A stretch of 17,713 bases of DNA from Candidatus Hermodarchaeota archaeon. GTDB lineage: Archaea > Asgardarchaeota > Lokiarchaeia > Sigyniarchaeales > SOKP01. The notes beneath the pieces are model-generated. The model was not told the DNA's origin, made no database searches, and saw only the letters and a list, made by a program, of their open reading frames with translations. Where the stretch lies: positions 1-17,713 of the forward strand of contig JBHLLO010000063.1 of assembly GCA_048885535.1 (NCBI GenBank). The letters are read 5' to 3'. Both the position numbers and the translations under genes were made by a program. This document shows, one piece after another, positions 4,810 to 17,713 of this stretch. The first letter of the stretch is position 1. Every line of letters begins with the position of its first letter.

Positions 4810-5033
4810 GATACCAAGGACAAGTGATATTTGTTAACCCTGAAATGGATTTAGTGATCGTTTTTAATGCTAGAGATATGTGACCACCTTATGAAATTAT
4901 AGAATAGCTTCTTGGAGCTATTCTCCTTCCAGAAACATTTCCTTGGTGGATTGGGCTTTTAAGTATATCCATAATGGCCATTGTCTTGGTTCTATTTAGA
5001 AAAAGGATATTTCGAATGAAGAGGAAGACGTAA
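4810..5033 (+). pseudogene. 3' remnant of a membrane-anchored serine hydrolase (beta-lactamase family), copy 2
   Basis: Reads YQGQVIFVNPEMDLVIVFNARDM*PPYEIIE*LLGAILLPETFPWWIGLLSISIMAIVLVLFRKRIFRMKRKT*. QVIFVNPEMDLVIV matches QVIAVIPDLNLIVV of the intact hydrolase at 6083-7318. Two in-frame stops. Confidence 0.7.
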
Positions 5034-5073
5034 ATTTATTTTTTCTTAAATCTAATAATTGAAATCATTTCTA
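4854..5073 (+). repeat. Diverged direct repeat, copy 2 (partner at 1321-1540)
   Basis: Visual alignment to 1321-1540. Includes the last codons of the nitroreductase gene on the minus strand. Confidence 0.9.
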
Positions 5074-12974: not shown

Positions 12975-13904
12975 TTATCTGCTAAAACGCTTTTTTAAGA
13001 AGATGCTCAAAATTGCTATAATTCCGACTATAGATATGGAAGCAATAGTAATAGTGCTTTCAATTGGGATTGTTTCAGGGATTAATAAAGTCCAGGTTGA
13101 TAAAGTAGTTATCTCAGTGGTTAAATATCCATCTTCATTTATTGTCGGAGAAGTTACCCATTCATTAGTTTCATCAACATAACATGCCCACTGCCCTAAT
13201 CGATTTTGATTGGTTGCTCTTATTCTTAGTCTCGCTTTTAAAAAATTACCATTATAAGGACATTCAGAATCGCATTTACATTCAGGGTCACAATTACATT
13301 GGCAGTTACACTCACAAATACATACAGGATCACATTGGCATTTACAATTGCAGATACAATTACATTCTAACTCACAGTTACATTCACATTCGCAAGGGCA
13401 TATACAATCTGGATCACATTGACATTGACACTCACACTCACATGAACATTCAGGATCACATTTGCAATTACAATTACAACTTGGAGAACATTCCATAGAA
13501 ATACAAAATCCTTCTAAATACCTATACATATTTCGGTTTCTTACTCTATGAAGGCTTCCGTTCATTAATCCGAGTTGAGTTTCTTCTCTCGTACAAGTCA
13601 TTGTCATTCTATGCTTTGTATCTCCTTCAATTTCGATGATTACATCTTTTTCTCCTATTCTCAAAGCTTCACAATTAATTTCTAACTCTAAGTCTGTATT
13701 AGTACATATTGTGAGTCGTGTTCTTTCACGAAAACAGAACATAGTTCGATTATTACTCTGTAGTTGTATCTGAATTGAATCTCCTTGAACATCTATGATT
13801 TGATCGGGACCCTCAAAACCTAACACGTTTACAGAACTTACTAGGGTAAACACCATAATTAATGTGAGAAGGCTTAACAATACTTTACTAACATTTTTTT
13901 TCAT
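12975..13904 (-). CDS. Secreted/membrane-anchored protein with a metallothionein-like Cys-rich tandem repeat
   Basis: N-terminal signal peptide-like segment, C-terminal TM helix followed by KKRFSR, and a 77-aa tract containing 32 Cys. Confidence 0.8.
   Translation of the reverse strand: MKKNVSKVLLSLLTLIMVFTLVSSVNVLGFEGPDQIIDVQGDSIQIQLQSNNRTMFCFRERTRLTICTNTDLELEINCEALRIGEKDVIIEIEGDTKHRMTMTCTREETQLGLMNGSLHRVRNRNMYRYLEGFCISMECSPSCNCNCKCDPECSCECECQCQCDPDCICPCECECNCELECNCICNCKCQCDPVCICECNCQCNCDPECKCDSECPYNGNFLKARLRIRATNQNRLGQWACYVDETNEWVTSPTINEDGYLTTEITTLSTWTLLIPETIPIESTITIASISIVGIIAILSIFLKKRFSR
13260..13490 (-). repeat. Intragenic 42-nt (14-aa) tandem repeat encoding DPx-C(XC)5
   Basis: GG(A/G)TCACA anchors at 13285, 13327, 13411 and 13453, all at multiples of 42 nt. 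Confidence 0.85.
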
Positions 13905-14064
13905 TAAATAACACCAATATTTTTGGTTAATGATTAATTAAAAGTTCAAATAAAAAGGATTAAGGTGCAATCTTTCCCAATAATTTCCGATTAAAATGTC
14001 AAAATACAAAAAAACAATTTTTGAGATAGATATAAAATTAATAGAATAACCAATAAAGAAAAGC

Positions 14065-15771
14065 TTATGCATTAATCCTTCTAATTTCTTCTTCTAGTAA
14101 TTTATCAATGTCAATAAAATAGAATTTATCCACTATAAGCTCATATGTGTTGCTGTAATCGCTAAACCGGGATCGACCAGCAATAACGATATCTTTTCCA
14201 AGTAATTCTGCTGAAATTTTCTCCAAAAATTTAACCAGATCCGGAGTATTTTGCAATAATCTCATTTCTTCTGTTCTTTGTTTAATTAACCTTTCAGCAA
14301 TTCTTCCCATAAAAGCTGTTCGGATAGTACCTGTCCCATCATCAATTATTAAATTAATTATCATTCTAGCAATAGGTGGTTCTCTCTCGTGATTTGGTAT
14401 TAAGCACTTGTCATATATCCTATTGCAGATACTACAAGCTTCATAAATAAAGATTTTAGTTATCTCCTTAGCGATAAATCCCTTTATTGTGAAGGTTCCA
14501 ATGCTATCTATTGAGGATAGAGAAGTGTATTTTTTTTCGGGTGCATAATATTCTGTAACTTGCTTAATTTCTGTTGTATCTATCTCCATAGATGAAAAAT
14601 TGAGAAAAACTACTTCTTTTTGTCTATCAACTCTACTATTCTTAACCATTACATTCTTAAGTGTTATTTTATATCCTTCTTTAATCATCTTAGAATAATC
14701 TAAAGCAGGTCTTCCCCAAATTCTAACCCTGATAGAATCAGAGTCGTCAGCTACAAAGAAATTTAAAACATAATTCTCTTTTCCCGATCTTATAAAATGT
14801 ATTTTCCTAAGATCATCGATAGAAACTATATATCCTGTAAAATGAGCTAATCCCTCACTCTTTTTAAGATCATGTACAATTTTTGTATATTCTAGCTTTT
14901 GAGATACAATATCCTTCTCTTTCTTAATATTTGTATCAGAAGTAGCATATAACTCTATTGCATTATTTACTCTGTCTCGATGCAATATTAAATCAGAAAT
15001 ATGGATATAATCCCCAACCTGTAAATTTTGAATTTTATCTCTATCATTATCCCAAAATGTGATTCTAATAATTCCTGAAGTATCCATCAAATTAATTGAA
15101 ATTAGATATCCACTTTTACGAGTTTGAGTTTTATATCTTTTAAGAGGGAAAATTTGGATAACCTCTCCTTTTAAAGAGATTAGTTTTTCATTCATATCAC
15201 CCTTTATATCGATTATATTTATGAGATTTTCAAATACTTTTGGATATCGCTTATAATCAACATCTTCAGGGCTTAAGATAATGCGTGAATAGCGCCCAAC
15301 ATGGATTTCTAAATTGTTATACTTATCAACCTTTGTAAAACCATTCATAATTTTAACTAAAGTATTCTTTCGAAAATTTTCTTGCTTAAACATGTCAACA
15401 TGTTCATTCCATAATACAACGCGAATGTCTCCTGTACGATCAGTTAATATAAAAGTGCCAAGAAAGCCCTCCCGTCCATCTCTATGAATAAATTTATGTA
15501 TGGGATAAATTAACTTAATTCTACCATAAAGGATTATGTTTCTCATATTTGGATTAAGATCTGAAATAAGAAGCTCAATTTCAAGTAATTCTAATTGATT
15601 TACGATATCGATACCTAATTCTTTTGCAATAATGAATAAGGCACCTTCGTCAGAGATTAAACCTTTTAGTTCAGATTTTTTCTCTTCTACCATTTGAAAT
15701 ATTTCTGTTCTAGTTAAACCTGTCTCTTCAATAATTCTATTTAAAAAATTTTCGAATTTCCTTCTCATCAT
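14065..15771 (-). CDS. rpa: Replication protein A-like ssDNA-binding protein (N-terminal helical domain, 4 OB folds, Zn finger); candidate retron partner
   Basis: N-terminal EI..MVEEKK.ELKGLISDEGALFIIAKELG of archaeal RPA. Repeated OB signatures DRTGDIRVVLW, DTSGIIRITFW, DDSDSIRVRIW and DDGTGTIRTAF. Zn finger YEACSICN...C....H. Confidence 0.9.
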   Translation of the reverse strand: MMRRKFENFLNRIIEETGLTRTEIFQMVEEKKSELKGLISDEGALFIIAKELGIDIVNQLELLEIELLISDLNPNMRNIILYGRIKLIYPIHKFIHRDGREGFLGTFILTDRTGDIRVVLWNEHVDMFKQENFRKNTLVKIMNGFTKVDKYNNLEIHVGRYSRIILSPEDVDYKRYPKVFENLINIIDIKGDMNEKLISLKGEVIQIFPLKRYKTQTRKSGYLISINLMDTSGIIRITFWDNDRDKIQNLQVGDYIHISDLILHRDRVNNAIELYATSDTNIKKEKDIVSQKLEYTKIVHDLKKSEGLAHFTGYIVSIDDLRKIHFIRSGKENYVLNFFVADDSDSIRVRIWGRPALDYSKMIKEGYKITLKNVMVKNSRVDRQKEVVFLNFSSMEIDTTEIKQVTEYYAPEKKYTSLSSIDSIGTFTIKGFIAKEITKIFIYEACSICNRIYDKCLIPNHEREPPIARMIINLIIDDGTGTIRTAFMGRIAERLIKQRTEEMRLLQNTPDLVKFLEKISAELLGKDIVIAGRSRFSDYSNTYELIVDKFYFIDIDKLLEEEIRRINA

Positions 15772-15800
15772 AACTTTCCTCTCTCTATCTGTATAACTCG

Positions 15801-15979
15801 CTTTAGAATTTTATCAGCTTGTTTTGTTAATTGCATTCTAGTGTTTGTTTTGTTATCATAGCTGCATTATAGGGTGTTTTGTTACCTTAAATGCACTTTT
15901 ATCACTCCATATGACGGAACATCATATTATCCTAAGGAAAAATATATATCCTTTTGGATGGCCTGAAATAACTCCAAAG
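15801..15979 (-). ncRNA. Predicted retron msr-msd non-coding RNA
   Basis: Closing stem 5'-CUUUGGAGUUAUUUCAG (15979-15963) pairs with 5'-CUGAUAAAAUUCUAAAG (15817-15801), 15 of 17 positions including 2 G.U pairs that form only on the minus strand. Unpaired G15962 lies opposite G15818. Hairpins at 15929-15959 and 15909-15927. Begins 4 nt after the RT stop codon. Confidence 0.65.
15820..15895 (+). repeat. Three direct repeats of TGTTTTGTTA, each followed by TGCA
   Basis: Exact 10-mer at 15820-15829, 15846-15855 and 15875-15884; TGCA at 15832, 15863 and 15892. Confidence 0.9.
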
Positions 15980-15983
15980 TGTT

Positions 15984-17036
15984 TTATAATTTTAAATTTT
16001 TATTTATCATATTTTTAATTGAAATAAAATCTTGGTAAAAGTGATTATATTTCTCTTTATTGACCATTAGGGCATAAGCGCACCTTCCTTCAATATTTTT
16101 CATTATCTCCATGACGCTATCATCTAAATACTTATAATCATTTTTTAAATGATACAGAGCCGAGCGTAGATTTTTGATCCATCTTCTTGGTAAAGATGGT
16201 TGAGAATTCTGAACATTTATCCCTGTCACACGTTGAAAATTACGATTATATGATAAGCGTTCTTTTTTTCTATTAATTGAGAATCCATGTGCTTCAATAG
16301 ATGAGTGTATTTTTTTTATTAAATTTGTGGTGATATATCTCTTAGATTGACTGGAAAAGGTTATATCATCGGCGTATCTGGTATATCTCAACCCATATCT
16401 CATTGCAAATTCACTAAGTTCTTTATCAAGTTGATCACACACCAGATTAGAAATTATAGGGCTTGTACACGCTCCTTGAGGCAAAAACGCCGCTTTATAA
16501 AGGTTTAATAGTGTTTTATCTTGAATGCCATAATCGTATTTGGGTAAGAATGTACATAATAATCCAAACAAGTGCGAAATATATTCTGAATACCCAATAT
16601 TCATGAAAACCTTACAAACTTTATATAGTTTAATTGATGGAAAGAAATCTACTAAATCAATATGATAAGTTATCAGAGATTTTAAATGTTCTTTAGCATT
16701 TGAGACAATTGAACGTTCTTTTGTAAAACCATGAGCAAATTCACTTGGCTTAACTTTTTCTAGGATTTCCCTGAGAATTTTTAATTGAATCTGTTTCAAT
16801 TCAGGTGTAGGAGTGATGATCTCTCGACGACCTCCTGATTTCTTAGTAATAAAAAAAGTGTTGTAAGTTAAAATTCTTGAGTTGAATTTAAAATAATCTT
16901 TTAATAATAAATCGCTAATTTCCAAGAAATTAGCTAAATCCCTGAAATTGTGAATTAATGGTAATCCATTCACTTTTAATTTTAAAAAATTAGAATCATG
17001 TGTACTTAAATCTAATTTATGATGACATTCAAGCAT
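15984..17036 (-). CDS. Retron-type reverse transcriptase
   Basis: KKSGGRREI..P..ELK.IQ, AHGF...RSIVSNAKEH (retron region X, NAxxH), DLVDFFPSI, LPQGACTSP, YTRYADDITFS and VTG (region Y). 350 aa with no maturase or endonuclease domain. Confidence 0.93.
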   Translation of the reverse strand: MLECHHKLDLSTHDSNFLKLKVNGLPLIHNFRDLANFLEISDLLLKDYFKFNSRILTYNTFFITKKSGGRREIITPTPELKQIQLKILREILEKVKPSEFAHGFTKERSIVSNAKEHLKSLITYHIDLVDFFPSIKLYKVCKVFMNIGYSEYISHLFGLLCTFLPKYDYGIQDKTLLNLYKAAFLPQGACTSPIISNLVCDQLDKELSEFAMRYGLRYTRYADDITFSSQSKRYITTNLIKKIHSSIEAHGFSINRKKERLSYNRNFQRVTGINVQNSQPSLPRRWIKNLRSALYHLKNDYKYLDDSVMEIMKNIEGRCAYALMVNKEKYNHFYQDFISIKNMINKNLKL

Positions 17037-17201
17037 CGAAACATATTAAACATTTTTGCCTTATAACTTCAGAAGAACCATAAATATTTAAAGAATATGC
17101 AAAAATTGAAATCAAAAATTAAGGATTAGTATACCTTAAAATTCATTTTATATAATGAAATATTATAATAATAACAATCAATTGGAATATTGTGAGATTC
17201 T

Positions 17202-17713
17202 TTGATTTGGTTTACTGCTGATTTTCATCTTTCTCATAAGAATATTATTGATTACTGTAACCGTCCGTTTAATAGTATTGAGGAAATGGATAAAGCCATA
17301 ATCAAGAATCTTGAAGAATGTGTTAAATCAAGTGATATGCTCTACTTTCTTGGAGATTTAACCTTTAAGCAAACAATCGCACGTGACTTTTTTGAGAGAT
17401 TTAATGATCTTGAGATTCATTTCATAATAGGAAATCATGATTCAAAAGAAGTAATAAAACTTGCTGAAAAACATTGTATTTCAATATCTAATTTGAAGGA
17501 TATTATTATAGAAGACCAATCAATTACGCTCTGTCATTACGCAATGCGTGTGTGGAATAAAAGTCATTTTAACGCTTGGCAGTTATACGGACATTCTCAT
17601 GCAGGCCTTTCTCCTATTGGGAAGCAATATGATGTCGGAGTAGATAACAATCACTTCTTTCCTGTATCATTTGAAAATTTAAAGGTTATAATGAAAAAAC
17701 AGCCTGATAATTT
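17202..17713 (+). CDS. Calcineurin-like metallophosphoesterase (COG4186-like); 3' end runs off the window
   Basis: Hand translation from TTG at 17202: MIWFTADFHLSHKNIIDYCNRPF...LYFLGDL...IGNHD...LCHYAM...LYGHSH...DVGVD. All five metallophosphoesterase motifs (DxH, GD, GNHD, H, GHxH) are present. No stop before the window end. Confidence 0.92.
   Translation, partial: MIWFTADFHLSHKNIIDYCNRPFNSIEEMDKAIIKNLEECVKSSDMLYFLGDLTFKQTIARDFFERFNDLEIHFIIGNHDSKEVIKLAEKHCISISNLKDIIIEDQSITLCHYAMRVWNKSHFNAWQLYGHSHAGLSPIGKQYDVGVDNNHFFPVSFENLKVIMKKQPDN

Follow-up and report, generated by a model that had tools for sequence, protein, structure and literature searches.

The stretch of DNA analysed here (the window, 17,713 nt) comes from a Candidatus Hermodarchaeota archaeon of the class Lokiarchaeia, and it carries a row of minus-strand features composed of a gene for a 350-residue reverse transcriptase (RT, 17036..15984), a 212-nt spacer containing short repeats, and a gene for a 568-residue protein resembling replication protein A (RPA, 15771..14065). 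Divergent from the RT gene, on the plus strand, is a gene for a small calcineurin-like metallophosphoesterase (17202..17711; Pfam Metallophos, 2.1e-5), which is cut by the end of the contig. Retrons are known as bacterial defence systems in which a hairpin DNA product restrains an enzyme effector, and it is to these elements that the RT points. The protein (15984..17036, minus strand) has the NAKEH and VTG motifs of a retron-type enzyme, and residues N113, A114, H117, T271 and G272 of the NAxxH and VTG motifs are invariant columns in all four clade members compared. Its best HMM match was PADLOC RT_XIII (4.4e-101), in addition to which it matched 56 further PADLOC retron RT models and Pfam RVT_1 (1.5e-24), and it scored 209.6 bits against the NCBIfam model for the retron St85 RT, under the cut-off of 235 for that model. 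Outside the archaea, the closest RTs came from myxobacteria, planctomycetes and cyanobacteria (33-38% identity), and the nearest bacterial relatives were type XIII-like. Judged from its sequence, the enzyme is a retron RT of a type XIII-like kind, a class given by model match. Relatives of the RT were present in 21 of the 154 genomes of the order, and as a single-protein query against the genome contig collection it retrieved no relative.

Parts of the locus recur on other contigs. The terminal codons and stop of the RT gene (15981..16017) have a 35/37 identical copy standing alone in an intergenic stretch (C93:2620-2656), and this RT-end fragment showed up as loose ends among contigs from four public runs of one study. 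Contig C103 (C103:6636-8205) has a variant form of window 16144-17713, 90.7% identical, which spans the phosphoesterase gene and RT codons 1-297; the last 77 nt of C103 are those of window 16144-16220, the point at which variant and window merge. Because its depth was lower in public contigs, the variant probably stems from a second strain that was assembled along with the first, and does not represent another copy within one genome. Just past the RPA gene lies a 38-nt element (13982..14019) with a 35/38 copy in the same orientation just past the phosphoesterase gene (C103:6546-6583). The resulting imperfect direct repeat brackets a four-part cassette of phosphoesterase, RT, noncoding RNA (ncRNA) and RPA, and possibly the pair delimits an inserted island.

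Architecture of the noncoding RNA

Directly downstream of the RT gene, in the window and in four related Lokiarchaeal loci (G121, G050, G021 and G068), is a region with a common layout: an arm a2, a G, two stem-loops, a variable msd and a second arm, a1. In the window the 5' arm of the closing stem, a2 (CUUUGGAGUU-AUU-UCAG, 15963..15979, minus strand), pairs in minimum-energy folds with the 3' arm, a1 (CUGA-UAA-AAUUCUAAAG, 15801..15817, minus strand), which was located by folds and by a duplex search; a2 sits at the equivalent position in the four relatives. The arm sequences are unrelated among the loci, yet all of them end in CAG/G or CCG/G and restart with CUGA, CUGG or CGGG, the a1 start following AACAG, AACG, AUCG or ACAAG. 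The G right after a2 (15962, minus strand), which follows CAG or CCG in all five loci, is the candidate priming (branching) nucleotide, a role that we infer from retron biology as set out in PMC7736814.

The two stem-loops of the msr are conserved among the loci. Stem-loop 1 (15929..15959, minus strand) has an outer AUCC/GGAU helix, an A bulge and an inner AAGGA/UCCUU helix, with 92% of cells paired in five sequences, while stem-loop 2 (AUAUGAUG-UUC-CGUCAUAU, 15909..15927, minus strand) has eight pairs with 97.5% of cells paired, and across the loci it keeps 7-8 pairs and a UUC or CAC loop. Aligned over the five sequences, the two hairpins together had 95.4% of their cells paired, a value reached by 2 of 500 shuffles, and slid controls of the alignment gave 20-59%. 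Three pairs, all in stem-loop 2, were altered on both sides, a count that 161 of 500 shuffles reached. A covariance model of the two hairpins (R1, 13 pairs) was built from the window, G121, G050 and G021; it matched the window at 15905-15965 with 61.6 bits, and it matched all five loci of the RT clade. As four of the five loci went into the model, G068 (27.1 bits, E 1.3e-06) is the sole independent match. In 151 genomes of the order there was no other match better than E 0.002.

The closing stem varied in strength from locus to locus. In G021 the a2 and a1 arms form 13 bp in the fold, and their best duplex of -15.9 kcal/mol was equalled by 2 of 300 shuffles; shuffles did as well in 3 of 300 cases for G068, 17 of 300 for G050 and 44 of 300 for G121. 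When the a2 region of the window was searched against everything downstream, the best duplex was -13.7 kcal/mol and 31 of 500 shuffles were as good, so that the window stem taken by itself is moderately better than chance; with the last G of the CAG omitted, a competing pairing with 15912-15895 scored best. Folds of the whole RNA gave z-scores of -6.2 for G021, -6.1 for G068, -3.2 for G050 and -1.9 for the window. A retron-clade RT, closing repeats a1 and a2 (five of five loci) and a G at the inner end of a2 (five of five) are thus found together, and on these sequence-level features the locus fits the definition of a retron.

Other assignments for the RNA were searched. Rfam had no match over the whole window at gathering thresholds and none at E up to 1 over 15700-17300, and tRNA and tmRNA searches of the window found none. 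A C/D-box sRNA was considered and dropped, since the box-like strings are misordered and, by eye, missing from the copies of the region on contigs C59 and C65 that are described below. Outside the archaeal loci, R1 gave two matches only (E 0.17 and 0.4) among 80 metagenome RT loci, all of at most 41% identity. Three bacterial RTs of the type XIII-like kind had weak R1 matches on their upstream side, with E from 0.08 to 0.2 (L137:3212-3230, L164:484-524 and L146:3359-3402). These matches contain GGUGUUCCGCC or a similar hairpin, like stem-loop 2, which suggests, as far as sequence can tell, that the archaeal ncRNA and the type XIII msr are related and differ by a permutation of position.

The msd region, its repeats and the predicted cDNA

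With the hairpins at 15959-15929 and 15927-15909 and a1 at 15817-15801, the predicted template, or msd, is the 91-nt interval that remains between stem-loop 2 and a1 (15818..15908, minus strand). The initial annotation, made from the letters alone, had proposed 15818-15905 as the template, and the interval defined by the shared layout of the five loci bears this out. The predicted cDNA is the plus strand from 15818 upwards, 91 nt in length and 49% T, and its DNA fold of -5.1 kcal/mol (z -0.94) was no better than those of shuffles. It had also been anticipated that the product would not be one long hairpin, and the fold agrees; a long msd hairpin, usual for retrons and not strictly defining, is accordingly the one retron feature looked for that the window cDNA lacks. 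Predicted cDNAs of G121 (z -0.33) and G050 (z +1.06) were similarly unstructured, and in these two loci, as in the window, a paralogue of a protein acting on single-stranded DNA is encoded next door (RadA in both relatives, RPA in the window). G021 (z -3.8) and G068 (z -9.0), which have no RPA or RadA paralogue as neighbour, both had a strong hairpin in the predicted cDNA. The relation between structure and partner fits an open strand that would be made for a binder, in a set of five loci of which two are close kin.

In the organisation of its sequence the window msd is the odd one out among the five. Three exact copies of TGTTTTGTTA lie on the plus strand (copy 1 at 15820..15829, copy 2 at 15846..15855 and copy 3 at 15875..15884), spaced 26 and 29 nt apart, and these are the positions and spacings at which they had been noted initially. 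A TGCA does follow each of the three copies as then described; it is not adjacent to them, the gaps being 2, 7 and 7 nt. The spacers between the repeats, of 16 and 19 nt, are unlike each other. When one mismatch was allowed, the window had four sites against 3.91 expected (108 of 200 shuffles reached four), which is not significant, and exact TGTTTTGTTA occurs at 21 sites on both strands of the 3.09-Mb genome, where base composition predicts about 31. Only two clusters of exact sites within 200 nt were present in the genome, the msd triple and a pair on C59 that belongs to a copy of the same stretch, and it is this clustering of exact copies that is the non-random aspect of TGTTTTGTTA. A hairpin at 15863-15895 with copy 3 in its loop had been drawn from the sequence, and it does appear in the minimum-energy DNA fold, the whole of which is as weak as given above; 33 of 200 shuffles of the predicted cDNA folded as well, and a slightly longer stretch had a z of -0.12. 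The alternative stem that was suggested to loop out copy 2 can be drawn, but it appeared in none of the predicted folds. When repeat number was compared across the homologous msd regions, the triple was present in one of the five, and it is therefore not conserved in the family.

Neighbouring proteins and a proposed retron

The RPA-like protein (14065..15771, minus strand) contains a DUF2240 region, OB folds and an end resembling Rep_fac-A_C in Pfam, together with a sub-threshold match to Pfam POT1PC, and all of its matches to the NCBIfam replication factor A models were under their cut-offs. In BLASTP comparisons it was 43-47% identical to all 29 RPAs of the family examined; the housekeeping RPA of the genome, its other copy (C22), is 68% identical to an RPA of the same genus. 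In a FastTree phylogeny the window protein had the longest branch; in 400 genomes of the phylum no relative exceeded 49% identity, and in a large protein collection the best matches were one cluster at 99% and, after it, one protein at 50%. The gene for the 99% identical paralogue is on a contig of 11.3 kb in another assembly. By these comparisons the window RPA is an extra and very divergent second copy. Its pairing with the RT is confined to one genome, in that no RPA gene was found within 1.5 kb at the order's remaining 28 RT loci or at 160 more distant RT loci, and the 80 metagenome RT loci had no RPA, RadA or phosphoesterase as a neighbour.

A counterpart to this pairing was provided by G121 and G050, in which the RT gene is followed by 280-340 nt of ncRNA, then a Rad51/RadA gene (Pfam 2e-69 and 5e-70) and then a phosphoesterase gene, all in one direction (L098:4009-6972 in G121 and L099:5453-8490 in G050). 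The RT-linked RadA proteins are 71% identical to each other and 45-51% identical to the RadA genes of G000, and G121 and G050 each have four RadA-like genes, compared with three in G000 and G073 and two in G109. On the sequence comparisons, the RT-linked RadA is an extra (fourth) paralogue that occupies the position of the RPA in two relatives, and these loci look like a retron-recombinase module in Lokiarchaeia. The recurrence of an extra paralogue at the same place makes a link between the retron and the neighbouring RPA plausible. Homologues of the window phosphoesterase, 52-56% identical to it, are the enzymes that follow the RT-linked RadA. In the window's genome the phosphoesterase is found only beside the RT, and its family is mostly located away from RTs (23 of 28 fetched loci had no RT or RadA within 1.5 kb). 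Its sole solved relative is a distant one (1xm7, E 5e-5), and its NCBIfam matches were weak and sub-threshold. The lariat-debranching enzyme Dbr1 belongs to the metallophosphoesterase superfamily, and by analogy the small enzyme could cut the 2'-5' RNA-DNA branch or trim the cDNA.

Taken as a whole, the explanation that we favour, with a probability of roughly 0.55, is that the repeat-bearing stretch is a retron msd and that its open cDNA serves as ligand for the RPA paralogue next to it. The minus-strand RNA between the stop of the type XIII-like RT gene and the start of the divergent RPA gene would carry the msd template and would be closed by the long-range stem of a2 and a1 (15979-15963 with 15817-15801). 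The RT would recognise the two conserved stem-loops and prime on the G at 15962, and its copying of the RNA, starting at 15818 and moving upwards, would yield a T-rich single-stranded DNA roughly 90 nt long. This product, whose ends are predictions, would display the three TGTTTTGTTA units 26 and 29 nt apart and be almost free of self-structure. That open strand would then be bound by the RPA paralogue, a corresponding ligand would serve the extra RadA recombinase in the related loci, and trimming or release of the DNA may fall to the small phosphoesterase. If other retrons are a guide, the DNA probably restrains its protein partner until a virus disturbs the complex, which would give the cassette a role in defence.

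How such a cassette would relate to described systems can be judged from several of them. Type XIII retrons, which form clade 10 of Mestre et al. 2020 and include Mx162, Mx65, Ne144 and Sa163, are accompanied by a protein with a DEDE motif, a winged helix and a SWIM zinc finger and by a HEAT/ARM-repeat protein, according to that study (PMC7736814). The archaeal locus resembles them in the best match of its RT to RT_XIII and in the GGUGUUCCGCC-like hairpin of the bacterial ncRNA matches, and differs in its archaeal host, in having the ncRNA downstream of the RT rather than upstream, and in its partners, which are a paralogue of RPA or RadA and a small phosphoesterase. No SWIM, winged-helix or HEAT/ARM protein was found in a Pfam scan of 10 ORFs of the window and 8 of C103, a view bounded by the contig ends. 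Since SWIM and ARM partners are lacking and the ncRNA is permuted in position, the locus falls outside the definition of the type XIII system. The accessory protein of type V retrons has an OB-type fold. It is a single cold-shock DNA-binding domain of 67-86 residues, as given in the same source (PMC7736814). The similarity is that a retron is paired with a nucleic-acid-binding protein, a small one in type V; the archaeal partner is instead a 568-residue, multi-OB RPA derived from a host replication protein, and the RT clades differ.

The working model of a DNA that holds its partner in check is borrowed from retrons Ec86 (Eco1) and Sen2, which follow a toxin-antitoxin logic with an msDNA scaffold restraining the effector. 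Those retrons have enzymes as effectors and hairpins as msDNAs, whereas the archaeal partner is a single-stranded DNA binder or a recombinase and the predicted DNA is an open single strand. Laboratory retron recombineering, reportedly an engineered combination of msDNA with an SSB and an annealase, also couples a source of retron cDNA with single-stranded DNA-binding and recombination proteins; the archaeal genes differ in being natural neighbours, and no editing activity is claimed for them. The locus and its relatives point to a branch of retrons in Asgard archaea with three differences: the ncRNA comes after the RT, the predicted DNA is an open single strand, and the partners are a spare RPA or RadA with a small phosphoesterase. 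The cassette would be a concrete case of a retron product meant for binding as single-stranded DNA. In the literature searched, whose supplements may list some, no retron was described in Lokiarchaeia or other Asgard archaea, and within the same bounds the sources (PMC7736814, PMC8632793 and PMC13712802 among them) had no archaeal pairing of a retron with RPA.

Chromosomal copies and competing explanations

Parts of the msd recur elsewhere in the genome. Window 15837-15899 (63 nt) is 100% identical to C59:3866-3804, and window 15827-15879 (53 nt) is 100% identical to C65:10010-9958, so that 15827..15899 is the stretch with recurring parts. Each copy is flanked by the ends of two convergent genes, in surroundings that lack an RT or RPA, and both fall within the predicted cDNA span, with ends that differ; two of the three 10-mers are included at C59 and one at C65. 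The 43-nt core common to the copies was found in none of 134 other genomes of the family, and a 24-nt core pattern had no match in metagenome or viral contig collections. Isolated exact repeats of at least 36 nt make up only four families in the 3.09 Mb, of which the msd family alone has three members, and with such repeats so rare it is very unlikely that one landed in a single 91-nt msd by chance. All three contexts of the stretch were visible as loose ends in contigs from four public runs of one study. In run X1 the core unitig had a depth of 43.7 against about 14 for its flanks, the expectation for three genomic copies; since contigs cannot show the level of small DNA, that depth is silent on msDNA.

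One reading of these copies is that the cassette is a natural retron-plus-recombination module whose cDNA has already reached the chromosome. The C59 and C65 copies would derive from the interior of the predicted msDNA, having been taken up or copied where the chromosome had broken, or they could be homology targets with which RPA- or RadA-loaded cDNA pairs. The suggestion was made because the copies are inside the cDNA span, their ends differ, and the C59 copy fills a junction at which a relative has an additional gene: of the 87 nt of intergenic DNA at C59:3784-3870, 63 are those of the msd fragment, and G134 (L306:430-1500) has a gene for a 288-residue LRR protein there, between two conserved genes. 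The RT-end fragment on C93 (35/37) is outside the cDNA span and counts against cDNA origin as a general rule, as does the absence of additional msd copies from the four relatives searched for them. We regard this reading as speculative, with the odds clearly against it; if the scattered copies did prove to be retron-derived, they would be the first natural retron cDNA reaching a chromosome, and relevant to retron-based genome editing.

The same copies lend themselves to a different view of the stretch, namely that it is a dispersed repeat, filler or a mobile or foreign fragment that replaced the original msd hairpin and perhaps left the retron crippled. The perfect 63- and 53-nt copies at convergent gene ends without RT or RPA fit such a repeat, the window msd deviates from the others in its organisation, and in none of four related genomes was the genome's own msd present in a second copy. 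Invasion does not explain why the full 73-nt union is found solely in the retron while C59 and C65 carry different sub-segments of it. Moreover, the hallmarks of a MITE were lacking: the ends of the three copies are staggered, and inspection of the junctions by eye showed neither terminal inverted repeats nor target duplications. The arms a2 and a1 are intact, as are both stem-loops, and the viral and metagenome collections gave no match. On balance this origin is unlikely. An attachment site was also modelled, in which the 43-nt core would be shared by integrated elements, with the window attP-like, C59 attR and C65 attL. Such a tandem integration would account for C63 sharing a left arm with C59 and a right arm with C65, but arm identity extends for just 20 and 10 nt, no integrase was present among the ORFs scanned, and the core's restriction to one of the family's genomes examined also speaks against it. 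The genes flanking the C65 copy, for CysRS and an MBL hydrolase, already adjoin each other in G134, with 30 nt between them, so no large element starts there, and this adjacency largely refutes a model that we consider highly improbable.

Two further explanations concern the 10-mers themselves. They could be double-stranded sites for a transcription factor that controls the gene of the RPA paralogue, as would be allowed by direct repeats 46-110 nt upstream of its start codon and by a GATAAAAT that follows them closely and looks TATA-like by eye; a1 ends 29 nt before the RPA ATG, and a promoter for this gene must overlap a1. The initial annotation had itself named an rpa promoter as the alternative to be checked. 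The exact motif was upstream of none of 30 other rpa genes (29 from relatives and the housekeeping copy), with a one-mismatch site at one of the 30, and on this check the promoter alternative fails. In addition, the 10-mers at C59 and C65 have no promoter to serve between convergent gene ends, and the stretch occupies the msd position of four related ncRNAs, leaving an operator very unlikely. Telomerase, with POT1 or CST, is a precedent for TG-rich repeats made by an RT and bound as single strands by an OB-fold protein, and the TG-rich repeats here do lie beside an OB-fold single-stranded DNA binder. The idea of a telomerase-like RT that uses the internal repetition of UAACAAAACA to realign, adding repeats and producing a concatemeric TG-rich cDNA for its OB-fold partner, draws on the repetitiveness of that motif and on the OB-fold neighbour only. 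A retron-clade RT with complete a2/a1 arms and stem-loops predicts a unit-length product, the repeats are encoded in the genome and interrupted by dissimilar spacers of 16 and 19 nt, no sign of repeat addition was seen, and no related locus has such repeats; repeat addition is thus the most improbable of the explanations considered, and the retron msd with an open, RPA-bound cDNA is the reading to which we return.

Repetition is not confined to the cassette. On the minus strand at 12975-13904 is a gene for a 309-residue protein, secreted or anchored in the membrane, in which cysteine repeats of the CxCxC type form a long run; the protein matched no Pfam family, and its gene contains an internal 93-nt duplication (13260-13352 and 13386-13478, 78% identical). 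The window also has a 213-nt direct repeat, 86% identical, at 1322-1534 and 4855-5067.
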